14,296 nucleotides of DNA from a marine bacterium AO1-C (GTDB lineage: Bacteria; Bacteroidota; Bacteroidia; Cytophagales; Microscillaceae). Shown in pieces: positions 3-14,296 of this stretch. The stretch covers positions 616,341-630,636 of the forward strand of contig MLAY01000008.1 in the NCBI GenBank assembly GCA_001890965.1, read 5' to 3'. How positions within the stretch are numbered: position 1 is the stretch's first letter; every line of letters begins with the position of its first letter. Under the pieces are notes generated by a model, which saw only the letters and a program-made list of their open reading frames with translations, had not been told where the DNA came from and made no database searches. A program made the translations under genes and the position numbers.

Positions 3-1931
3 TTTAATATTAGCCATTTCAAATTTAAGAATATTGGCAAGATTCCCTATTATCGGAATCTAGAAAAGTACAATAAAATCAAGAAGTACTACAAAAGAAA
101 AAATTGGCGTCGTATGTACAGTGAGCTCAAAGCATATGTGCTGGAGTTTGGCGTACAGAATTTTTATAAAGATACCTACCTTTTGTGGAGGTTGGGCAAA
201 CTCTCTGAGCAATTGGGGTATATAGAAGAAGCCAAAAGTTTGTATCGTTTGGTGCTAAAACACCACCACAATGCCCGTAAAAAGGAAATTAGGCTTTATT
301 ATGACGAGCTAACTAAGCTTGATAAGGATTATTACTTACCCATTGAATATTATAAAAACCTGGTAGGTATGCCTAATAAATTTGTAGATACCATGGATGT
401 GGCTGAGGCCAATACTACCAAAATGAATGATAGTATTAACTCTCCATTTAGCGACTATGGTCCAAGTATTTCCAAGTTAGGCATTAAGTCTATGCTGGTG
501 TTTACCTCCAAGCGTAAACGTAAAGAAACCTCAGCAGGTAATGTTACTTTCGATGAGGATTTATACTTCTCTGTAAGAGCCGATTCATTTTATATCAATA
601 AAGCCAGTGGAGCTATTGATACCATCCCCTGGACGCTTGCCCGTCCTCTGAAAGGCATCAATACCGATGATTACAATGAAGGCTCTGCAATAGTTACCCC
701 AGATGGTAAAACTATATTCTTTGTGCGTTGCGAAAGCCCCGATGGTTATGGCAATTGCGACATATTTACGGCCGAGAAAATGTCGGATGGCACCTATGGT
801 AATGTCCAAAACCTTGGCCCTCAGGTAAATAGTATCAGTTGGGACTCCCATCCCTCGTTATCCCATTCAGGCGACACCCTGTTCTTTGCCTCAGATCGTA
901 TTGGGGGCTTTGGGCTATCGGACATTTACTTTACCTATAAAATGGGCGATGGAAGCTGGGCTCCGGCCCAAAATATGGGGCCTGATATAAACACTCGTCA
1001 AAGTGAAATCAGTCCATTTTATCATCCAACCTTCGAGATTTTGTATTTCAGTTCCAATGGGCACTTAGTCAACTTTGGCAACTTTGATATTTACAAAACT
1101 TATAAAATGTACAATACCTGGACCGAACCACGCAACGTAGGCCCTCTGATCAACCATGATCAGAATGAATATTACTTTGCGATTGATCCCAAATCGGCGT
1201 TTATGTTTTTCGCCAAAGCAGATACTATTCTGCGTTGGAATCATGTCAAACGGGATTCGGTCAAGACAGAGGATTTAAATATTCATTCCTATCCCTTGCC
1301 CATGGAGGCTCATCCCAATGCCACCGTGCGGTTTTCGGGAAGCATCAAAGATTCTATTTCAGGAAGAGCATTTTCGGGTATTGTATCTATCATTGATCTG
1401 GATAATGGAATCGAAATTGCACCCAAGCGACTGCGTCCAGATGGTTCTTATGACTTCGAGCTGATCAAGAATAACAATTATCTGGTCGTCATCACGGGAG
1501 AAGATTTTTATAGGATAGAAAAAGAGTTCTTGCTAAGGGGAGATACGGCCATTAATATATCGACACCTTCGCTGAAGTTCAAAAAATGGGAGTTTTCATC
1601 AATCGAGTTTAAGCAAAACGAAGCGAAAGTTACTCCTGAGATGGAAGCCGACCTGGATAAGCTGGTCATTTTACTGGCTGACCACCCCAAACTGGGATTA
1701 AAAATATCTGGGCACACTGATTCTTCAGGAGACCATGATTCTAACCTGAAGCTTTCACAAGATCGTGCCGATGCCATTAAAAAGTATATAGTCGACAAGG
1801 GGAAATTCGATCCCAAACGAGTCACCGCGATAGGCTATGGGGATACTGTGCCTATTATAAAAAATGAAAAGACCGAAGAGGACAAAAAGGTCAACCGTCG
1901 AGTCGAATTTGAGATTGTGACGATTGAATGA
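3..1931 (+). CDS. OmpA-family protein (TPR-like N-terminus, TolB/PD40-type beta-propeller repeats, C-terminal OmpA/MotB peptidoglycan-binding domain). It is 5'-partial: the frame stays open to the window edge upstream of Met114.
   Basis: The 605-aa ORF (114..1931) has no in-frame stop back to position 3, and the upstream residues (…FKFKNIGKIPYYRNLEKYNKIKKYY…) continue the TPR-like helix pattern. Repeated PD40 motifs are present (SPDG…DIF, GDTLFFASDR…SDIYF, FDIYKT). The C-terminal OmpA signature is present: ISGHTDSSGDHDSNLKLSQDRADAIKKYIV…NRRVEFEIV. Confidence 0.8.
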   Translation, partial: FNISHFKFKNIGKIPYYRNLEKYNKIKKYYKRKNWRRMYSELKAYVLEFGVQNFYKDTYLLWRLGKLSEQLGYIEEAKSLYRLVLKHHHNARKKEIRLYYDELTKLDKDYYLPIEYYKNLVGMPNKFVDTMDVAEANTTKMNDSINSPFSDYGPSISKLGIKSMLVFTSKRKRKETSAGNVTFDEDLYFSVRADSFYINKASGAIDTIPWTLARPLKGINTDDYNEGSAIVTPDGKTIFFVRCESPDGYGNCDIFTAEKMSDGTYGNVQNLGPQVNSISWDSHPSLSHSGDTLFFASDRIGGFGLSDIYFTYKMGDGSWAPAQNMGPDINTRQSEISPFYHPTFEILYFSSNGHLVNFGNFDIYKTYKMYNTWTEPRNVGPLINHDQNEYYFAIDPKSAFMFFAKADTILRWNHVKRDSVKTEDLNIHSYPLPMEAHPNATVRFSGSIKDSISGRAFSGIVSIIDLDNGIEIAPKRLRPDGSYDFELIKNNNYLVVITGEDFYRIEKEFLLRGDTAINISTPSLKFKKWEFSSIEFKQNEAKVTPEMEADLDKLVILLADHPKLGLKISGHTDSSGDHDSNLKLSQDRADAIKKYIVDKGKFDPKRVTAIGYGDTVPIIKNEKTEEDKKVNRRVEFEIVTIE

Positions 1932-1953
1932 CCCTGATTTTATAAAGAAATTT

Positions 1954-1989
1954 GAAGCCTGACTGCTGGATAGTAGTTGGGCTTTTTTT
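1954..1989 (+). terminator. Putative rho-independent terminator of the OmpA-family gene
   Basis: The arm AAGCC(T) at about 1955-1960 pairs with (G)GGCTT at about 1979-1984. A T7 run follows at 1983-1989, 20-55 nt downstream of the stop codon. The stem is short and the loop long, so this is a weak call. Confidence 0.4.
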
Positions 1990-2000
1990 GTAAGTTTTCT

Positions 2001-2427: not shown

Positions 2428-4653
2428 TTAGAGAAGCTCGTCTTCGTCGTAGACTTTGAGTAAATCCATTGTGCGTCTTTCGAGGTCGGTAGATTTTACT
2501 CGCACCTTTAAAGTATCGCCAAAGGTGATTACGTTTTTGGTTTTCTTACCTACTACTCGGTAATTTTCTTCATCAAGTTGGTAAAAATCATCTACCAAAT
2601 CACTCATCCGAATCATACCTTCGCACTTGGTTTCTTCCAATTCTACGTAAATACCCCAATCAGTTACTCCGGTTACTACCCCATCATATGCCTTATCAGA
2701 GTCATTGAGAATACGCATATATTCTACCTGCTTATATTTAATAGAAGCTCGTTCTGCTTCCGCAGCACGTTTTTCCATATCGGTAGAATGTTTACATAGC
2801 TTCTCAAAAGTACCTTTGTCTACTGATTTGCCATTGTCTAGATAATGCTGCAACAAGCGATGCACCATCATATCTGGATAACGACGAATCGGTGAGGTAA
2901 AGTGGGTGTAATGATCAAAGGCTAACCCAAAGTGCCCGGTAGGCTCTGTGGTGTAAATCGCTTTGGCCATTGTACGAATTGCCAACCCTTGCAATACGTG
3001 TTGCTGAGGAGTATTTTCAATGGCTACCATCAACTTGTTCAAAGAACTCGTCATTGCTTTGCCGTTGAGTTTTACATCGTGCCCTAGCTTTTTAGCAAAA
3101 CCTGAGAAGTTTTTCAACTTATCTACATCTGGATTATCATGGGTACGATATACCATTGTATTGCTTTCAGCTTTAGCACCTTTCACTGGCATTTTGTAAA
3201 TAAACTCAGCCACTTTTCGGTTGGCCAGCAACATAAATTCCTCGATCAATTTATGGGCATCTTTACGCTCTTTGGTAAATAAACCAATAGGTGTTCCGTT
3301 TTCGTCTAGCTTAAACTTAACTTCTACAGTTTCGAAACTCATCGCCCCTTTTTCAAAGCGTTGAGCAGTTAACTTTTTAGCCAAATCATTGAGCAACTGC
3401 AGTTCTGCAGCAAAATCTCCTTCGCCACTATCAATTCCTTCCTGTGCTTCTTCGTAAGTAAAACGTCGGTCAGAATGAATGATCGTACGCCCAAACCACT
3501 CGCTATGCACATTGGCTTGCTCGTCCAGCTCAAAAACTGCCGAGAAAGTCAATTTATCCTCATGGGGTCGCAAAGAACACAACTCATTGGAAAGTTTCTC
3601 AGGCAACATAGGTATTACCCGGTCTACCAAATATACCGAAGTAGCTCTTTCGGCTCCTTCTTTTTCTACTTTTGAATCAGGTTTTACGTAGTGGGTTACA
3701 TCGGCAATGTGGATGCCTACTTCCCAGTTACCATTGTCTAACTTCTTGATAGACAAGGCATCATCAAAATCCTTGGCAGTATCAGGGTCTATGGTAAACG
3801 TAGTAATCTCTCGGAAATCACGTCGTTTCTTAATCTCAGCCTTGGTAATTCTGCCGCGAATTTTATCCGCATCTGTTATCACCTCCTTTGGAAAATGGCG
3901 GGCCAACCCAAACTCAGCCATGATGGCATGCATTTCGGTCTCGTTTACTCCTGGTGCTCCCAACACTTCTTTCACCTGCGCTACCGGACTACTCTTTTCA
4001 TCGTGCCATTCCAGAATTTCTACAATCACTTTGTCTCCATTTTTCGCACCGTTGATGTGTTTTTGGGGCACAAAAATATCCATATGCATACGGCGATTAT
4101 CGGCCACTACAAATGCATACTTTTCTTTGATTTCTATTTTACCAACAAATTCATTGGTTTTACGCTCCAACACTTCCAGTACTTCACCTTCTGGACGCTT
4201 ACCCTTTGCTTTAGGGTACAAACGGGCTTTTACCGTATCGCCATGCAAGGCAAATTTCAAATGATCGGCATCTACCCAAGTATCTTCTTCGGTTTCGTCG
4301 CTCACAATAAAAGCAAAACGAGGATTTACAAAATCCACCGTACCTTTAATGATATGCAACAAGATTCGCACGTTACCTTCCTGGTCTACTAAAACCTGAT
4401 CACTTTCTGCTAGTTTCTCAAGTGCATCAATCACCTTCACTTTATTTTTCTCAGTTCTAACCTGTAGAATGTCAATTAGTTCTTCAATTGCAAATTGTCG
4501 TTCTGCATTTTTATTTAGAATGGCAAAAATTTTAGATTGGAAATGTTGAACGGTGAGGGTAGTTTTTTTGCTTTTCTTTTGTCTTCTTTTGTTAAACTGC
4601 TTTTTTGTAAGTTTCTTCTTTTTCGTCTTCTGCGTTTTCATGTTCTGTTTCAT
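2428..4653 (-). CDS. rnr: Ribonuclease R (3'-5' exoribonuclease, RNB family)
   Basis: 741 aa. It has OB/cold-shock-like N-terminal domains, a central RNB catalytic domain (…TIDPDTAKDFDDALS…, …HFTSPIRRYPDMMVHRLL…) and a C-terminal S1 domain (…DGVVTGVTDWGIYVELEETKCEGMIRMSDL…). The N-terminal tail is lysine/arginine-rich and low-complexity. It starts at an ATG and stops at TAA (2428-2430). Confidence 0.9.
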   Translation of the reverse strand: MKQNMKTQKTKKKKLTKKQFNKRRQKKSKKTTLTVQHFQSKIFAILNKNAERQFAIEELIDILQVRTEKNKVKVIDALEKLAESDQVLVDQEGNVRILLHIIKGTVDFVNPRFAFIVSDETEEDTWVDADHLKFALHGDTVKARLYPKAKGKRPEGEVLEVLERKTNEFVGKIEIKEKYAFVVADNRRMHMDIFVPQKHINGAKNGDKVIVEILEWHDEKSSPVAQVKEVLGAPGVNETEMHAIMAEFGLARHFPKEVITDADKIRGRITKAEIKKRRDFREITTFTIDPDTAKDFDDALSIKKLDNGNWEVGIHIADVTHYVKPDSKVEKEGAERATSVYLVDRVIPMLPEKLSNELCSLRPHEDKLTFSAVFELDEQANVHSEWFGRTIIHSDRRFTYEEAQEGIDSGEGDFAAELQLLNDLAKKLTAQRFEKGAMSFETVEVKFKLDENGTPIGLFTKERKDAHKLIEEFMLLANRKVAEFIYKMPVKGAKAESNTMVYRTHDNPDVDKLKNFSGFAKKLGHDVKLNGKAMTSSLNKLMVAIENTPQQHVLQGLAIRTMAKAIYTTEPTGHFGLAFDHYTHFTSPIRRYPDMMVHRLLQHYLDNGKSVDKGTFEKLCKHSTDMEKRAAEAERASIKYKQVEYMRILNDSDKAYDGVVTGVTDWGIYVELEETKCEGMIRMSDLVDDFYQLDEENYRVVGKKTKNVITFGDTLKVRVKSTDLERRTMDLLKVYDEDELL

Positions 4654-4970
4654 CTTTTTTCATTTTAATAGGTTGATTGATAATTGAATTGGATGGGAAA
4701 ATGGTAATTGAAAATTGAATTTTTAATAGGATAAGTATACAACTTACCTTGTATATAGGAGGGGCGCTTATGATGCAAAGTAACGTAATTTATTTTATTA
4801 AAGTTGACTATTTTCAATATAAATGTAGTTTTCCAATTAAAAAACTGAATTTTAATATCACTTTTTGTAGTTAAGATGTGTATTTTTTGATAGAATCTAA
4901 ATTCACTCTTTTCGAAAAGAGATATAATTATTTAAAGGATTGTGCAAAAACCTTACTACGAATTTATTTG

Positions 4971-6830
4971 CTATGAGGCCAAATTGTTATTTTTTTTCTC
5001 CTTGCTCAATCTTCTTCTCAATTGTGCTTTACGGATGTCTTCCAGTGTACCTTTTGGAATAGCCTCAATCAGTCGTTTCGTGTATTCTTCCTGAGGCTTT
5101 TCATAAATTCTATCGGCATAATCGCTTTCTACGATTTTGCCTTGGTTCAACACAATCAGGCGATCTGACATAAATTTTACAACTGATAAGTCGTGTGAAA
5201 TGAATATATAAGTCAGATTAAATTTTTCTTTAAGTTCGTTGAGCAAGTTGAGCACCTGGGCTTGAACCGATACATCTAGTGCTGAGACAGACTCGTCACA
5301 AATAATAAACTTAGGATTCAAGCTCAAGGTACGGGCAATGACAATACGTTGACGTTGTCCTCCAGAAAACTCATGAGGATAACGACTGTAATGCTCTGGT
5401 TTTAGACTCACCGTTTCCAATAATTCAATCACCCGATCTTTGCGTTGCTTATTGTTTTTTAAAACACCGTGCAAACGCATAGGCTCTAAAATCGCCTCAC
5501 CGATAGTTAAACGTGGATTGAGTGACGAATAAGGGTCCTGAAAAATGATTTGCATGTCACGGCGTAACTTGCGCAGTTTTTTGCCTTTAAAATCATTGAT
5601 TCGCTCCTTTTCAAACACGATAGATCCACCTGTAGGCTCAATTAGGCGCATAATCGCTCGACCCAATGTCGTTTTTCCTGAGCCAGATTCTCCTACCAAC
5701 CCTATGGTTTCGCCTGGATATACCTTAAAACTCACATTGTCTACCGCCTTGATAGGTGCAGGACGTTTTTGAAACAAACCTTTACGGATAGGGAAATATT
5801 TCTTTAGGTTTTTGACCTGCAAAATAGGAGGTCGTTCGGCCAGCATTTTATTCCGCTCTTCTACCTCATCTTCAGTGACAAAGTTCATCAAGAGTGCCTC
5901 CCCTACCGAAGCATATTTGTTGTCTGCTTTCTCTACAATCGAATCATCTTCGGTCACCTCCATAAAGTCATCAATCGTTGGGAGTACTCGCATCTGTACG
6001 TCTAAACGAGGACGACAAGCCAACAATCCTTTAGTATAAGGGTGCTGAGGATTGTCAAAAATATTCCACACATCATCTTTTTCCATCATTCGTCCGTGGT
6101 ACATCACCATTACATCATCAGCGATTTCGGCAATGACTCCAAGATCGTGGGTAATAAAAATGATAGAAACATCCTTGTCTTCATGAAGAATCTGCAACAA
6201 CTCTAAGATAGCAGCTTGTACTGTTACATCCAATGCCGTGGTAGGCTCATCAGCAATCAGTAATCGAGGATTACAAGATAATGCCATGGCAATCATTACC
6301 CGCTGTTTTTGCCCTCCAGAAATTTCGTGAGGATAAGCATCAAACATTTTTTCAGGTCGAGGCAAACGTACTTTTTTGAAGAGTTCAATGGTTTTGTCGT
6401 AGGCTTGCTTTTTAGTCACGTTTTCGTGCAGAAGAATAGCCTCCATCACTTGGTTGCCACAAGTATAAACCGGGTTGAGCGAGGTCATAGGCTCTTGAAA
6501 GATCATTGCAATGTCTTTTCCACGAATCTCTCGCATCTCTTCCGGGGTGGCCTTTACTAAATCTAGTTTTTTGCCTAAGGTTGGAGAATCAAACCAAATT
6601 TCGCCTCCATTAATCTTCCCTACAGGCTCTTGAATAAGTCGCATAATGGCCAGAGAAGTTACTGACTTGCCCGAACCAGACTCTCCTACAATGCCTAATG
6701 TTCTCCCTTTCTCTATAGAAAAGCTCACATTATTCACTGCTTTTACTATTTGTTCTTCGGTGGTAAAGGTAACCTCCAGGTTGCGTACCTCAATAATTGT
6801 TTCCTGTTCTTCTTCTTGATGCAATGACAT
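4971..6830 (-). CDS. ABC transporter ATP-binding protein with two fused nucleotide-binding domains (DppD/DppF-like, YejF-type architecture)
   Basis: 619 aa. There are two Walker A motifs (GESGSGKSV and GESGSGKTT) and two ABC signatures (ISGGQKQR and FSGGQRQR). There are two Walker B/D-loops ([12 protein letters not shown] and [12 protein letters not shown]) and two H-loops (ITHD and ISHD). An oligopeptide-type C-terminal 'HPYT' motif ([11 protein letters not shown]) follows domain 1, with a variant after domain 2 ([10 protein letters not shown]). Confidence 0.88.
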
Positions 6831-7783: not shown

Positions 7784-8188
7784 TTATCCGTGCAGGATTC
7801 CTTCCAACTCAAGTATAGCAATTTGGGTAAGGTTGGTATCTATGATGCTTTCTGGCATAAAAATAAATTTCTTATCATAGATTTTGCCTTCTACATAATA
7901 GCTTACCCAATATTCATTGGATAGATGAAATACCTGGGGATCAATGCGTTCGATCACGACAAAGCTTTGTTTTTCTACTTTGTCAATCATTTGTCTAATG
8001 GTAGAAGTTTTTTGAGACTCGCCATCTTTTTGCCCATACCCTTTAGAGGTAACCAGGATATTGTTGAGTTCAAAATCGTTACGATTGATCAAGTATACGT
8101 GCCAGTCATACTCCTCATTGGCCACTGGCTTGCGTGCAATGGCTACTTCTACGCCTTCTACTTTGGGGAATTCAATGTCTTTTTTCAT
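7784..8188 (-). CDS. Hypothetical protein (134 aa from ATG 8188; the 6-frame ORF extends to a TTG at 8218)
   Basis: The ORF is uninterrupted and sits in the same orientation as its neighbours, 105 bp upstream of the exonuclease homologue. Its codon composition matches the flanking genes. I recognise no domain in it (MKKDIEFPKVEGVEVAIARKPVANEEYDWHVYLINRNDFELNNILVTSKGYGQK…). Confidence 0.5.
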   Translation of the reverse strand: MKKDIEFPKVEGVEVAIARKPVANEEYDWHVYLINRNDFELNNILVTSKGYGQKDGESQKTSTIRQMIDKVEKQSFVVIERIDPQVFHLSNEYWVSYYVEGKIYDKKFIFMPESIIDTNLTQIAILELEGILHG

Positions 8189-8299
8189 AGTATATATTAT
8201 AGTGTGGGATTTTAGCAAATAGTAAGCAGTAAGTAATAAACCACAGATTGTTGATCGAAGAGAAACAAATGTAGTTTAAAACTCACCGCTTATGATGCT

Positions 8300-9623: not shown

Positions 9624-10217
9624 ATGAAGTCATCAGAAAACCACACCAAAAAAGGTATATGGTATTACTCTTCTACTACTATAGATATACATGCATCACG
9701 TACGGTGTTTTGGATACTCTCATTTAGTAGCATTGTTTTTTACCTCTCTTATCTTTATCTACCATACGATGAAACCCTCTTATGGCCCTTGGCCATTGTT
9801 ATTTTATGGATATTTTTTCAATTTCGACATCGTGAACGCTCAGCACCTGATCGTATTTCCTTTTATAAAAGAGGGATTAAGATTACCCAAAAAGGAAAAA
9901 CTTATAGGTTTTATCATACACACATGACTGCCCCTAGCCTAAAACGTACTACAATCACCAAGTTAGAGTATGAGCATTTCGCCATCTGTTTAAGTTTTAC
10001 GATAAAAGACATCCACGAAAATTTTATAGCTCCTCCCAATAATCGCTTATCAATTGTGTTTATCATCCCTCCTGGGCTACGAGTGGGTCAAGTAGAATAT
10101 AGCTTAGATTATAGAATACCATATCCCTATTTCCAACTGAAGGATAAAGATGTTTTTGAACATTTAATAAAGTTAAAAAAACAAATAGAAGAAGTAAGCA
10201 ATCAAACTACTGATTAA
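9624..10217 (+). CDS. Hypothetical small membrane protein (two predicted N-terminal TM helices plus a cytoplasmic domain of about 120 aa). The architecture is reminiscent of YdbS/bPH_2-type proteins, but that is not verified.
   Basis: 197 aa with an ATG start. There are two hydrophobic segments (VFWILSFSSIVFYLSYLYL and LLWPLAIVILWIFFQF) followed by a charged soluble domain. It is divergent from the PGI gene and sits 110 bp upstream of, and co-directional with, the OMP gene. Confidence 0.5.
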   Translation: MKSSENHTKKGIWYYSSTTIDIHASRTVFWILSFSSIVFYLSYLYLPYDETLLWPLAIVILWIFFQFRHRERSAPDRISFYKRGIKITQKGKTYRFYHTHMTAPSLKRTTITKLEYEHFAICLSFTIKDIHENFIAPPNNRLSIVFIIPPGLRVGQVEYSLDYRIPYPYFQLKDKDVFEHLIKLKKQIEEVSNQTTD

Positions 10218-10298: not shown

Positions 10299-10306
10299 TA
10301 CTTTTG
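10299..10306 (+). promoter_or_regulatory. Candidate Bacteroidota sigma-A -7 box (TAnnTTTG) for the OMP gene
   Basis: TACTTTTG lies at 10299-10306, about 20-27 nt upstream of the ATG codons at 10327/10333. No well-spaced -33 TTG is present. It is the only exact TAnnTTTG match in the 110-bp intergenic region. Confidence 0.3.
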
Positions 10307-10332: not shown

Positions 10333-12777
10333 ATGAAAAAGCTAAACCTTATTTTAAACACACTATTTATCAGCTTGTTAGTGATTGGCAGCACTCAGGC
10401 CCAATCTATCAGGGGTAAGTTGATAGACCCTAAAACCAAAAAACCAGTAGAATTTGCAGTAATAGGACTTTTCAAAGCTGGAAGTACAGATCAAACTAAA
10501 GCTGTAGGTTCGGCTACTACTAATCTTGACGGTACTTTTGTACTACCCAATCTCCCATTTGGCAAATATGATTTGGTAGCCAGTATGATTGGCTATGAGA
10601 AAAAGACATTGAAAAATTTAGATGTAAGTGCAGCTCGTCCCAACCTCAACTTACAAAATGTAGAGATGCAATCGTCGGTGGTAAATCTGGATGAAATCGT
10701 AGTAGAAGCCAAAAGGGAATTTATCCAGGCCAATGAAGAAGGTATAAAAGTAAAAGCAGATAATAATATTTCTCAGCAAGGAGGATCGGCTTTAGATATC
10801 TTAAGAAACATTCCGGGAATTACAGTAGACAATGACGGAAACATTAGTTTACGTGGTACTTCTGCCAATATATTAATCAATGGTCGTAACTCAGCGCTTA
10901 CAGGTACCTCGCGGGGAGGAGGCTTGGAAACTTTACCAGCCAGTGCTATCAAGGATGTAAACATTAGTACTAACCCTTCAGCCAAATATGATGCTGCCGG
11001 GGTGGGTGGTGTGATCAACATTACTCTTAAAAAGGGGGTGAAAACTGGTACCAATGCTATGATTACGATCGGAGGAAGTAATAATGGACGTTACAATGGT
11101 TCGGTACGGGTGAATCGTCGCTCTGATAAATTTAATTGGTTTGCTTCTTATGATGTTCGTCGCAACTTTCGTCGGGTTTGGTTTGATAACGAACGAGAAA
11201 CTTTCAATGATTTTAGCCGCTCTCGCTTTTTGATCCAAGATCGTGATGGAGAACGTATTGATAACAACCATACATTGAAATTAGGAGGAGATTGGTTTAT
11301 TGATAAAAAAACCACGCTAAGTATTGAAGGCTTGGCAGGAATCAGTAAACAAGATGAACCCGAGTTTTTGATTAGTAGGTTTGGATCTACCCGCACTGTG
11401 TTAGACAGTACCCTGTTTACATTTAATGATGAGAAAGAAGATAACCTGACCTTTGAAGGAGCTTTGATTTTTACCCGAAAGTTTAACCGTAAAGGACAAA
11501 AACTAAATTTCTCCATCAGTGCTAATATAGGTACCGAGCTAGAAACTCAGGACGTGCAAACTGATTTGTTTGAGGTGGGTACTACCGATGTGCTTAACTC
11601 CCAGATTTTACAGCGCTCAGCCAATAACAACATTAATAATATCACCAACATTCAACTGGATTACACTCATCCTCTGGGTAAGAAGTTTTCTATGGAAACT
11701 GGTTATAAAGCCATTATCCGAGATATGAATCTAGATTTTGATCAGGAGGTGTTTGATGAGATTACCCAAACTTACCAATTTGATGCTACGCTTAGTAATG
11801 AGTTTAAGTATGACGAACAAGTACATGCAGCTTATGCGCTTTTTAAAGGAAAGCTGAATAAAAAAATTGGGGTAAACTTTGGGCTAAGAGCTGAACAAGT
11901 GTTGCTCACCGCTAAATCGGACAATGCGGAGCCTTTTACTAATAATTACTTCAATTTATTCCCAAGTGCGCGTATTGTGTATAACATTCGCAAAGGAGAG
12001 TTTATCAAGATTGGTTATAGTAAGCGTATTCGCCGTCCTCGCTTCCGCTTGTTAAACCCTTTCCGTGATATTTCTAACCCTAACAACATTCGGGTAGGAA
12101 ATCCAGAATTAGGCCCAGAACTCACCCATTCTGCTGAAATTGGTTATAATAAAATATGGAACAAGTTTAGTTTTATTCCAAGCTTATTTTACCGCCACAC
12201 AAATAATGTAATCCAACGCTTCACGACTCAAGACCCCAATGATCCAACTGTATTTATTCGTCGTCCGATCAACTTGGGAACTTCTACTTCTTATGGAGTA
12301 GAGTTAATCTTGATTGGTAATATCACCAAGTGGTGGGATTTCAATGCGAGTTATAGCTTTTTTAATCAGGAAATCGATGCACGCAATGCTGAAACTGATT
12401 TGATTACAAGTAGCACAAGCTGGAATGCTCGCCTACAATCTAACTGGAAACTGGGCAAAAGAACCAGCTTTCAATTAACAGGTAACTACCGAGCACCTAT
12501 TGTAAGAGCACAAGGTACTCGTCGGGCGTTTTATGCGCTCAACTTTGGGTTCCGTCACAGTTTCTGGAATAAGCGTGCTACGTTTGGTTTAGTATTCAGC
12601 GATATATTTGATACCCGAGAGTTTGGTTTTGATGCCCTGACTGATGAATTTACTTCAAGTGGACGATATAAGAGAGAAAGCCAAATTGTTAGAGTAAGCC
12701 TTACTTATCAGATTGGAAAACGTTTCAAAACAAGCATTAAGAAAGGAAGAGGTAATCGTCGCCGAAGAAGAAGATAG
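10333..12777 (+). CDS. Outer-membrane beta-barrel protein: N-terminal carboxypeptidase-regulatory-like domain, then a TonB-dependent-receptor-like plug and barrel (OMP_b-brl_3/'TonB-dependent receptor' family)
   Basis: The signal peptide is MKKLNLILNTLFISLLVIGSTQAQS. The 6-frame ORF begins at a TTG at 10291, and ATGs lie at 10327 and 10333. The CarboxypepD_reg-like segment is IRGKLIDPKTKKPVEFAVIGL…GKYDLVASMIGYEKK. Plug-like motifs are present (DIVVEAKR…, LDILRNIPGITVDNDGNISLRGTS). The barrel region is long and rich in aromatic/glycine alternation, ending …VRVSLTYQIGKRF. This is followed by a basic tail, KTSIKKGRGNRRRRRR. Confidence 0.8.
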   Translation: MKKLNLILNTLFISLLVIGSTQAQSIRGKLIDPKTKKPVEFAVIGLFKAGSTDQTKAVGSATTNLDGTFVLPNLPFGKYDLVASMIGYEKKTLKNLDVSAARPNLNLQNVEMQSSVVNLDEIVVEAKREFIQANEEGIKVKADNNISQQGGSALDILRNIPGITVDNDGNISLRGTSANILINGRNSALTGTSRGGGLETLPASAIKDVNISTNPSAKYDAAGVGGVINITLKKGVKTGTNAMITIGGSNNGRYNGSVRVNRRSDKFNWFASYDVRRNFRRVWFDNERETFNDFSRSRFLIQDRDGERIDNNHTLKLGGDWFIDKKTTLSIEGLAGISKQDEPEFLISRFGSTRTVLDSTLFTFNDEKEDNLTFEGALIFTRKFNRKGQKLNFSISANIGTELETQDVQTDLFEVGTTDVLNSQILQRSANNNINNITNIQLDYTHPLGKKFSMETGYKAIIRDMNLDFDQEVFDEITQTYQFDATLSNEFKYDEQVHAAYALFKGKLNKKIGVNFGLRAEQVLLTAKSDNAEPFTNNYFNLFPSARIVYNIRKGEFIKIGYSKRIRRPRFRLLNPFRDISNPNNIRVGNPELGPELTHSAEIGYNKIWNKFSFIPSLFYRHTNNVIQRFTTQDPNDPTVFIRRPINLGTSTSYGVELILIGNITKWWDFNASYSFFNQEIDARNAETDLITSSTSWNARLQSNWKLGKRTSFQLTGNYRAPIVRAQGTRRAFYALNFGFRHSFWNKRATFGLVFSDIFDTREFGFDALTDEFTSSGRYKRESQIVRVSLTYQIGKRFKTSIKKGRGNRRRRRR

Positions 12778-12855
12778 TAGTTGTTCAAAAATTTTACAGC
12801 ATTTTCTAAAATGCACTATTTATAGGATTATTTCATCTTGATTTATTAGTTGTCA

Positions 12856-12891
12856 AAAGACCAGGGTTGATTAGCCTTGGTCTTTTTTTTT
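12856..12891 (+). terminator. Rho-independent terminator of the OMP gene
   Basis: AAGACCAGGG-ttgatta-GCCTTGGTCTT forms a hairpin with a roughly 10-bp stem carrying one mismatch/bulge. A T9 run follows immediately (12883-12891), about 80 nt downstream of the stop codon. Confidence 0.7.
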
Positions 12892-13619
12892 ATTATATAG
12901 TTCAAATAAGCCTTGTCATTTGAAAGCATATACTACGCTCATAATCAGTTGTTTTATTATGGAGCTTCTCACCCAAATTGATGAGAAGTAGCAATGCTGA
13001 ATGTATATATTCTATTCCAAATTAAATATGCATTGAAAACAAAATCCATTGTATTATTCAACACAAACAAAAATATATTCTGCAGAAAAAAATATACGAA
13101 AATTATATTTTCTTATACCAAAAGGTAACCTTTCATAATTTTGCCCGTAATAATAAGCAAATAGCATTTCATAAACTCAATGCAATGAAAACTTACTCAA
13201 ACATACCGCTCATCTCATTCTACACTCGTAGTGCTTGGTGTTGGTTATTAACTTACCAAAACTTGTTTGAGTAATAACTCCCCTCTCAATTTTTCTTTTT
13301 AACAATCTTATTACATTTCTGAATCCCTATTGGGAAACTTGATTACTTCTAGCATCATAGTGTATTCATGCGTGTTTTTAAGCATAAATACATCAATTTG
13401 CCGAGTCCAAGTTTGTAATACAGATCTATCTGCTATCCAATGCTGATAGCATACTTTCAATAATTTCAAGTTGATTTTATTCTTAAGGCTGAGCTTTGGG
13501 TCTATGCCCAAACTTAATGCGCGGTTTTTTGGAGTTTTTTATCAGTCAATTGACTTGATTTTATTGTTCACAGGAGAATTATATCTAATCAAATCATAAC
13601 ACATATATAATATTTAAGA

Positions 13620-14296
13620 ATTTTAGTGATCAAACTGAAGGAAAATAAGTGAAAGATTTAATGAAAAACTAAGTGATCAAAACAAGGAGAATAAGTATCA
13701 AGCAGGAAAGTAAGTGAAAGATTTAATGAAAAATGAAGTGATCAAATAAGGAAAATGTAACACAAAATTGAGTGAAAAAATTAAGGCAAATAAGTGACAA
13801 ACTACATGAAAAGTGGAAAACGTAAAGTGAAAATTAAGTAATCAAACGAGGAAAATAAAGTGATCAATGAAAGCAAGCAAAAAATTTCTAAACCTAATTA
13901 ACCTTTATTAAAAGGTGATCAAACGAGGAAAATAGTAATCAAACAGGAAAATAAAGTGATCGATGAAAGCAAGTAAAAAATTTCTAAACCTAACTAACCT
14001 TTATTAAGAAGTGATCAAACGAGGAGAATAGTAATCAAACAGGAAAATAAAGTGATCGATGAAAGCAAGTAAGAAAAAGTTTATAAGCCTAACTAACCAA
14101 TTTTAGAAAGTGAAAATAAGTGACAACTAAGGAAAATGAAGTAATCAAATAAATGAGTCTACAAAACTAACGATCAGGCACTTACAATAATAAAAACCAA
14201 GGAGAATAAAGTGATCAAGAAAAGCAAGTAAGAAAAAGTTTATAAGTCTAACTAACCAATTTTAGAAAGTGAAAATAAGTGACAACTAAGGAAAAT
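13620..14296. repeat. Degenerate, purine-rich (top strand) tandem repeat array with higher-order units, truncated by the window end
   Basis: The core GT[G/A]ATC[A/G]A[A/T/G] occurs at least 13 times: GTGATCAAA at 13626, 13673, 13738, 13860(…AAT), 13915, 14011 and 14211; GTGATCGAT at 13956 and 14052; GTAATCAAA at 13838, 13935, 14031 and 14141. The core is usually followed by (C/A)GAGGA(A/G)AATA(A)AG. AAGTGAAAGATTTAATGAAAAA is duplicated at 13647-13668 and 13712-13733. Three higher-order units lie at 13841-13917, 13918-14012 and 14013 onward, with a 61-bp near-identical block (1 mismatch) at 13918-13978 versus 14013-14073. A 97-bp block at 14041-14137 is about 95% identical to 14200-14296. The top strand is almost devoid of C, and no ORF longer than 60 aa occurs on either strand. 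Confidence 0.85.

Follow-up and report, generated by a model that had tools for sequence, protein, structure and literature searches.

Bacterial sponge RNAs of the CsrB/RsmZ and CrcZ types are non-coding RNAs (ncRNAs) in which a short purine-rich motif, GGA or the A-rich AANAANAA, is present many times over; they end in an intrinsic terminator and titrate an RNA-binding protein in a multivalent manner. They are 100–450 nt in length, with the GGA motifs located in hairpin loops (Csr/Rsm) or the RNA bound by Hfq (CrcZ). In Bacteroidota, post-transcriptional regulation is poorly understood, and neither the classical RNA chaperones nor the sponge RNAs that go with them are present: Bacteroidetes are largely without Hfq, CsrA, and ProQ, and their RRM-1 proteins bind single-stranded RNA of the G/U/A type (bioRxiv 10.1101/2021.04.27.441718; PMC11697453). 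Here, we describe a purine-rich repeat array at the end of a 14,296-nt stretch of DNA, hereafter the window, from the marine bacterium AO1-C (Bacteroidota; Microscillaceae; assembly GCA_001890965.1, contig MLAY01000008.1, positions 616,341–630,636 of the forward strand). Because it lies between a conserved 29-codon gene and a conserved terminator, the array is most likely the body of a long ncRNA rather than a DNA-binding array. With moderate confidence, we propose that it is the repetitive part of a + strand transcription unit that is conserved and lineage-specific and whose product may act as an RNA platform.

Structure of the array and its orthologues

Repeats extending from approximately position 13,620 to the window end, as reported in a preliminary description of the stretch, were recovered by Tandem Repeats Finder (TRF), by a repeat search, and by counts of AAGTGATCAAAC against shuffled sequence. 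TRF detected a 96-bp period (2.8 copies with 90% matches at 13,837–14,113) together with sub-periods of 20 and 10 bp, and the repeat search found 111-nt copies at a 159-bp spacing (90% identity), 96-nt copies (94% identity), and a 22-nt module present four times. With up to two mismatches allowed, AAGTGATCAAAC matched the window 13 times, against 2.2 expected, a count reached in none of 200 shuffles; 11 of these 13 matches lie within the array, all on the + strand. A further motif, AGGAAAATAAGTGA, matched the window five times, with 0.3 expected. The repeats are thus genuine and well in excess of what chance would produce.

Three modules recur in the array, namely A-GTGATCA-AAC, GGAAAATAAGTGA, and CCTAACTAAC. 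The spacing of GTGA is mainly 21–22 nt, and the distance from core to core ranges from 20 to 100 bp, so that the core spacing of 47–97 bp given at first does not stand. Among the 13 cores in the window, seven read GTGATCA, two GTGATCG(AT), and four GTAATCA, the last of which contains no palindrome; GTGATTA variants are present in orthologues. A palindrome in every core, as claimed earlier, is thus not observed, and the accompanying argument that the symmetry marks half-sites of a dimeric protein or a methylation target fails, since a third of the cores lack the palindrome. The consensus kept over 42 cores from five genomes (A-GTGATCA-AAC..AGGAAAAT) is asymmetric. The array consists of 52% A, 17% G, 21% T, and 10.2% C. 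It is therefore purine-rich (69%), as had been stated, but not nearly free of C, which makes up 20% of the window elsewhere. GATC occurs at 14.8/kb in the array and at 2.9/kb in the rest of the window, a fivefold difference, and AGGAAAA motifs are frequent. No inverted repeats of at least 14 nt were found in the array by the repeat search.

The array is non-coding, in agreement with the preliminary description. It contains no + strand open reading frame (ORF) of 20 amino acids (aa) or more, and stops occur in all three + frames of the window array, the longest open run being 75 nt. In the arrays of three genomes, stops were present in all six frames, with open runs on the + strand no longer than 75–138 nt, and the mini-ORFs inside the arrays are not conserved between genomes. 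A repetitive coding gene hidden by a frameshift is ruled out by these stops and by the unconserved mini-ORFs. As also concluded previously, the array does not appear to be an element of the REP type, nor is it a CRISPR array: its spacing is irregular (20–100 bp), the "spacers" themselves repeat, and no cas domains are encoded in the window or in the orthologous locus L001.

Folding predictions distinguished the two strands of the array. The + strand RNA was less stable than its dinucleotide shuffles in four lineages (z-scores of +4.9 in the window and +3.1, +4.0, and +2.2 in the others), although repetition inflates these scores, as many copies of a single unstructured unit do not count as independent evidence. 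For the window array, z was +4.3 in one fold test and +4.9 in another, with a minimum free energy of −0.08 kcal/mol/nt. The − strand RNA was not less stable than the shuffles (z of 0–1.7). Small GC-rich hairpin islands are located at the same module position in the arrays of L001 and L010, in the context GTGAAAAATG–hairpin–CAA, with GCGA-UGCA-UCGC in L001 and GCGC-AGA-GCGC in the L010 group; the latter hairpins show a compensatory double change from C-G to U-A plus a G.U variant. No such islands are present in the window's own array.

Downstream of the array, a domain of approximately 130 nt is near-invariant between genomes whose adjacent protein is only 63–80% identical, a pattern that implies selection acting on the distal part of the putative transcript. 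The cassette is then closed by a + strand intrinsic terminator, for which the nearest upstream ORF is a small ORF (sORF) of 29 aa, located approximately 1–1.6 kb away. Four variants of the terminator stem were found—CCCGGUU/AACCGGG, CCCGAUU/AAUCGGG, CCCGAUG/CAUCGGG, and CCUGAUG/CAUCAGG—each folding into a 10-bp hairpin followed by a U-tail (z of −3.8 to −4.4), with compensatory changes at three stem positions.

Arrays of the same kind are located downstream of the same receptor gene, and on the same strand, in at least six other Microscillaceae assemblies. The orthologous loci comprise L001; the group L002, L008, L010, L011, and L012; L009 (3′ end only); L003; L017; and L018, with L016 as a probable member whose contig stops just beyond the sORF. 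A metagenome scan using the sORF added only one locus, L008. Full array lengths are approximately 1250 nt in L001, 1160 nt in L010, and 400 nt in L017, and the higher-order blocks differ from lineage to lineage. Nevertheless, the three short modules persist where the linker DNA preceding the array is only 61–78% identical to that of the window, and the cassette is kept in seven lineages although the genes on both flanks change. In the 15 loci scanned, the modules were confined to the orthologous site and always on the + strand, and they occur nowhere else in the window; within these loci, the array thus does not appear to be a common dispersed element, and its modules are conserved at orthologous loci. 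None of the refuting outcomes named in the preliminary description was seen.

The earlier statement that the array continues past the window was confirmed by alignment with L001. Two unique anchors in the window tail, gagtctacaaaactaacgatcaggcacttacaa and tataagtctaactaaccaattttagaaagtgaaaataagtga, align to L001 near 5180 and 5340–5430, placing the window end approximately 100–200 nt short of the array end, and the L001 orthologue shows the 3′ domain and then the terminator beyond the missing part. Eight of the 11 assemblies stop in the array or just before it. The contigs in question, from independent short-read projects, are the window (14,296), L002, L003, L008, L009, L012, L016, and L018, and L011 has a 100-N scaffold gap there (~4843–4942), which invalidates a comparison of copy number between L010 and L011. 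The window edge is probably an assembly break. The locus systematically disrupts short-read assemblies of these genomes.

Components of the cassette and neighboring genes

The cassette, with all elements on the + strand, runs from the receptor terminator through a 15-bp palindrome, a −7 box, the sORF, the linker, the array, and the 3′ domain to the intrinsic terminator; coordinates are collected in Table 1.

Table 1. Positions of the cassette elements and associated features in the window and in orthologous loci (L handles).
Feature	Position	Strand	Basis or remark
Intrinsic terminator of the TonB-dependent receptor gene (10327/10333–12777)	12855–12886	+	Terminator scan: 14-bp stem and T-run
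Perfect 15-bp palindrome GAAAATTATATTTTC	13098–13112		Read from sequence; ~24 nt upstream of the candidate −7 box
Candidate Bacteroidetes-type −7 box TAATTTTG (consensus TAnnTTTG)	13136–13143	+	49 nt upstream of the sORF start codon
Unannotated conserved sORF, 29 aa, MKTYSNIPLISFYTRSAWCWLLTYQNLFE	13185–13274	+	Coding signature across orthologues
Linker	13275–13619	+	Alignment of four lineages; 350–480 nt across loci
25-nt box TCAATTGACTTGATTTTATTGTTCA	13546–13570 (window); ~4231–4255 (L001); ~12142–12166 (L018)		Best-conserved part of the linker
Purine-rich, C-poor repeat array	13620–14296	+	Repeat searches, frame analysis, RNA folding, orthologous arrays; cut by the window end
GC-rich hairpin islands	4331–4350, 4478–4497, 4789–4808 (L001); 4790, 4866, 4942, 5439 (L010)		Same module position
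AraC/HTH_18 gene	~12750–13749 (L003); 10619–11620 (L016); 4456–5457 (L017); 10694–11695 (L018)		Same orientation as receptor and sORF

Within the cassette, conservation is strongest in the sORF. Seven distinct nucleotide versions differ at 3, 4, and 13 sites in the first, second, and third codon positions, respectively; 24 of the 29 residues are invariant, nine codons vary synonymously only, and there are no indels, in contrast to the flanks. As judged from this substitution pattern, the sORF is a real, unannotated conserved gene. It has no Pfam or NCBIfam match, and its exact protein sequence was not found in a collection of 15 billion proteins. The peptide contains Trp, and its C-terminal half, WCWLLTYQNLFE, is invariant. 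In all five lineages examined, a 78-nt segment spanning the stop codon contains 16 C and four G; C thus exceeds G around the stop, whereas G exceeds C throughout the array.

On the 5′ side, the terminator of the receptor gene, for which equivalent hairpins were found in L001 and L010, is the boundary of the cassette. The roughly 210 bp that follow (12,887–13,097) are very AT-rich (27% GC in 12,801–13,200), contain no conserved ORF, and are poorly kept between lineages. The 15-bp palindrome is identical in L001, L002, and L010, with related AAAAT-N-ATTTT forms in L017 and L018, and may be an operator of the type bound by a dimeric regulator. The position of the −7 box is kept in L001, L002, L008, and L010, and the box reads TAGTTTTG in L017. 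TAnnTTTG motifs were also found 21–48 nt upstream of three other window genes. In the receptor gene itself, the longest ORF starts at TTG 10,291, yet a TAnnTTTG box occupies 10,299–10,306; the receptor start is therefore probably ATG 10,327 or 10,333.

The linker opens with a pyrimidine-rich, G-poor stretch directly after the sORF stop, followed further on by predicted hairpins (fold z of −2.7 for 13,145–13,625). Linker and terminator scans detected no terminator-like site between the sORF and the array. The 25-nt box, with the palindrome TCAATTGA at its start, precedes the array by 40–110 nt and matches neither the sigma-70 nor the TAnnTTTG promoter consensus.

The window is a piece of a Bacteroidota chromosome encoding an OmpA-family protein, RNase R, an ABC-F ATPase, a PolB-like exonuclease, a bacterial PGI, and the OMP_b-brl_3 TonB-dependent receptor. 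The closest relatives of the receptor are from Microscillaceae and "Microscilla" metagenome-assembled genomes (92%, 90%, and 74% identity), and orthologues in a large protein collection extend down to approximately 75% identity before a drop to 39%, from which the locus is concluded to belong to a narrow clade. This clade includes coral- and bryozoan-associated metagenome samples. In the ~75% lineage (L003, L016, L017, and L018), an AraC/HTH_18 gene separates the receptor gene from the sORF. In the window, L001, and L010 lineages, the locus contains neither such a gene nor a remnant of one. The gene downstream of the cassette, absent in L017, encodes a 239-aa secreted protein with a signal peptide and no Pfam or NCBIfam family match, and a distant homologue of this gene has no array upstream.

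Two further ORFs in the window lack Pfam and NCBIfam matches, namely 7784–8218 (−; 144 aa) and 9624–10,217 (+; 197 aa). At the counterpart positions in L016 and L017 are genes of 134 and 198 aa, for which no Pfam matches were recorded. At 1855–1997 (+), Rfam gave a sub-threshold match to L10_leader, with 29 bits where the gathering score is 44 (E of 0.21). This match overlaps the OmpA-family gene at its 3′ end, runs past it, and ends in a terminator-like hairpin and U-run; it is probably the terminator of that gene.

A proposed long non-coding RNA and its alternatives

From these features we infer + strand transcription of the array and the position of its start. The transcription unit would proceed from the TAnnTTTG promoter through the 29-aa sORF, a linker of 350–480 nt, an array of 0.4–1.25 kb, and the 3′ domain of ~130 nt to the terminator, giving an RNA of up to approximately 2.4 kb if started at the sORF promoter. 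Within it, the array RNA would be kept single-stranded and C-poor and would display a small set of short motifs dozens of times (GTGA mainly every ~21 nt), thereby offering an RNA-binding factor a multivalent single-stranded platform that would work as a sponge or scaffold. Rho prefers C-rich, G-poor RNA. Since the array is C-poor, with G in excess over C, it would be a poor substrate for Rho loading, and a long untranslated RNA could thereby be shielded from Rho. The invariant C-terminal half of the sORF peptide and the C-rich, G-poor stretch after its stop codon might gate read-through into the array in a tnaC-like manner. Binding by a partner, the Rho logic, and the gating by the sORF are steps that we infer. 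A more specific proposal, which we make only tentatively, is that the element represents an undescribed class of long ncRNA in Bacteroidota: a leader-peptide-gated, Rho-refractory, unstructured, purine-rich repeat RNA that reaches ~1.25 kb, has a conserved 3′ domain, and acts as a multivalent sponge or scaffold.

Several observations weigh against the long ncRNA, in addition to the inflation of the low-structure scores by repetition. The TAnnTTTG motif is not statistically enriched across the window (24 occurrences with 18.5 expected), so that the −7 box upstream of the sORF is only a candidate, and no promoter of the sigma-70 or TAnnTTTG type is consistently positioned directly before the array. 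The in vitro motif of RbpB, GUAGGAUA, gave no match with up to one mismatch in any of the arrays, and therefore no partner can be named. The array is unbroken in only three assemblies (L001, L010, and L017), so its lengths may be collapsed, and with up to one mismatch allowed, L017 and L003 show the GATC-core module only weakly or not at all. Furthermore, the 21–22-bp period corresponds to two turns of the DNA helix, and both this period and the fivefold GATC density would also fit a role at the DNA level. The idea that the modules pair with the 3′ tail of 16S rRNA was dropped; the Bacteroidetes tail is not known to contain GAUCAC.

A DNA-level array would consist of helically phased direct-repeat sites for a protein (serving as a regulator "sink" or a nucleoprotein structure) or of a dense patch of GATC methylation. 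Plasmid iterons and the direct half-sites of AraC-type regulators share the period of 21–22 bp that dominates the GTGA spacing. The preliminary description had excluded helically phased iterons, an exclusion that does not hold for the basic period, leaving a DNA-level role a minor probability. The GATC excess speaks for it as well, and so does the AraC-family gene directly upstream of the cassette in L003, L016, L017, and L018, the product of which would be an example of a candidate binder. However, neither the gene nor a remnant is present in the window, L001, and L010 lineages, four of 13 cores have no palindrome, and neither a rep/par gene nor a DnaA-box cluster is nearby. The purine bias extends into the sequence between the modules, the low-structure signal is strand-specific, which selection on duplex DNA does not predict, and the conserved terminator and 3′ domain at the array end are left unexplained. 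We therefore regard a DNA-level array as rather unlikely, and assign a similarly small probability to the 29-aa peptide being the sole functional product, with the array as a long 3′ untranslated region or slippage minisatellite serving at most as a spacer or stability element. The peptide-only explanation draws on conservation being highest in the sORF, on the range of array lengths (~400 nt in L017 to ~1250 nt in L001) with lineage-specific higher-order blocks, and on the near loss of the GATC core in L017. It is opposed by the persistence of the three modules despite the divergence of the linker, by retention of the array in seven of seven lineages, by the consistency of structure avoidance across lineages, and by the near-invariant 3′ domain beyond the array, a sign of selection at the transcript's far end.

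Two other explanations fare considerably worse. Processing of a precursor into many small RNAs, as in type III toxin–antitoxin systems (ToxI-like) or tandem small-RNA arrays (NsiR1-like), is suggested by direct repeats of A-rich units followed by a terminator, an arrangement resembling toxI–toxN, but appears improbable: the repeats are irregular and degenerate rather than exact 34–45-nt units, and promoters or terminators are lacking within the individual units. A type III system was rejected on account of the downstream gene, which encodes a signal-peptide protein without a family match and is dispensable, being absent in L017; a distant homologue of it lacks an array upstream. A replication origin or partition centromere (iterons, sopC/parS-like) is more improbable still, and this reading is largely refuted, even though tandem direct repeats with a short palindromic core stand beside an AT-rich flank and repeats of ~20 bp recur at the iteron-like period of ~22 bp (GTGA spacing of 21–22 bp). 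Only two weak DnaA-box-like matches, with two mismatches each, occur in 12,778–14,296, and oriC was rejected for want of a cluster of such boxes. Genes of the rep, dnaA, or parAB kind are absent from the ~10 kb on either side (window and L001), the context is one of chromosomal housekeeping genes, the blastn search matched no plasmid record, inverted repeats of 14 nt or more are absent, and the 6-bp palindrome is missing from four of 13 cores. Of the three roles offered in the preliminary description, the template of an ncRNA is thus favored, owing to the confinement of the modules to one strand, the bracketing terminators with compensatory changes, and the low structure specific to the + strand, and the DNA-binding array and the origin or centromere are disfavored. 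If the long ncRNA reading is true, bacteria would have a hitherto unseen kind of regulatory RNA, kilobase-scale, unstructured, and built of repeats, with a conserved leader peptide and 3′ domain, and the array RNA could be used as bait for the pull-down of proteins that read such RNAs.

Comparison with described systems

Searches of Rfam gave no relevant match: for the window, L001, and L010, nothing reached E ≤ 1 in the linker, the array, or the 3′ domain. A blastn search of 13,100–14,296 against plasmids and phages yielded no match, the module pattern was absent from the viral contigs scanned, and literature searches returned nothing relevant on these motifs or on comparable repeat RNAs of Bacteroidetes.

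With plasmid iterons and sopC/parC, the array shares direct repeats, ~21–22 bp (or 43 bp) long, that all point the same way and have a short core with symmetry. In contrast to these, it is chromosomal and terminator-closed, without a rep/par gene or DnaA boxes, and contains up to ~40 GTGA-anchored units of ~21 nt, with a purine bias that is also found between the sites. Tandem direct repeats in one RNA closed by a terminator are likewise known from ToxI-type antitoxins, but in those systems two to six exact units of 34–45 nt directly precede an endoribonuclease toxin gene, and no toxin gene is linked to the array. A leader of the tnaC type resembles the 5′ part of the cassette, by analogy, in having a highly conserved, Trp-containing ORF of 24–29 codons whose C-terminal half does not vary and after which an untranslated C-rich, G-poor stretch begins directly; the sORF, however, has no sequence similarity to TnaC, and is followed by a non-coding array rather than a catabolic operon.

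In eukaryotes, the tandem short motifs of architectural long ncRNAs (Xist repeat domains and PNCTR) recruit many copies of an RNA-binding protein, according to two reports (PMC6224606; PMC6633197). As these RNAs are eukaryotic and nuclear, the likeness to the present element is one of principle only. Among bacterial RNAs, the CsrB/RsmZ and CrcZ sponges share with it the many copies of short purine-rich motifs and the intrinsic terminator. The element differs from them in being a predicted unstructured RNA of 0.4–1.25 kb with a conserved sORF ahead of it, in a phylum reported to be without CsrA and Hfq. Membership in the Csr/Rsm sponge small RNAs, which present GGA in hairpin loops, is not supported, as the array is predicted to be essentially unstructured. 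Overall, the element appears, by analogy, to resemble the sponge RNAs CsrB/RsmZ and CrcZ in logic, while departing from them in size and predicted structure and probably in partner.

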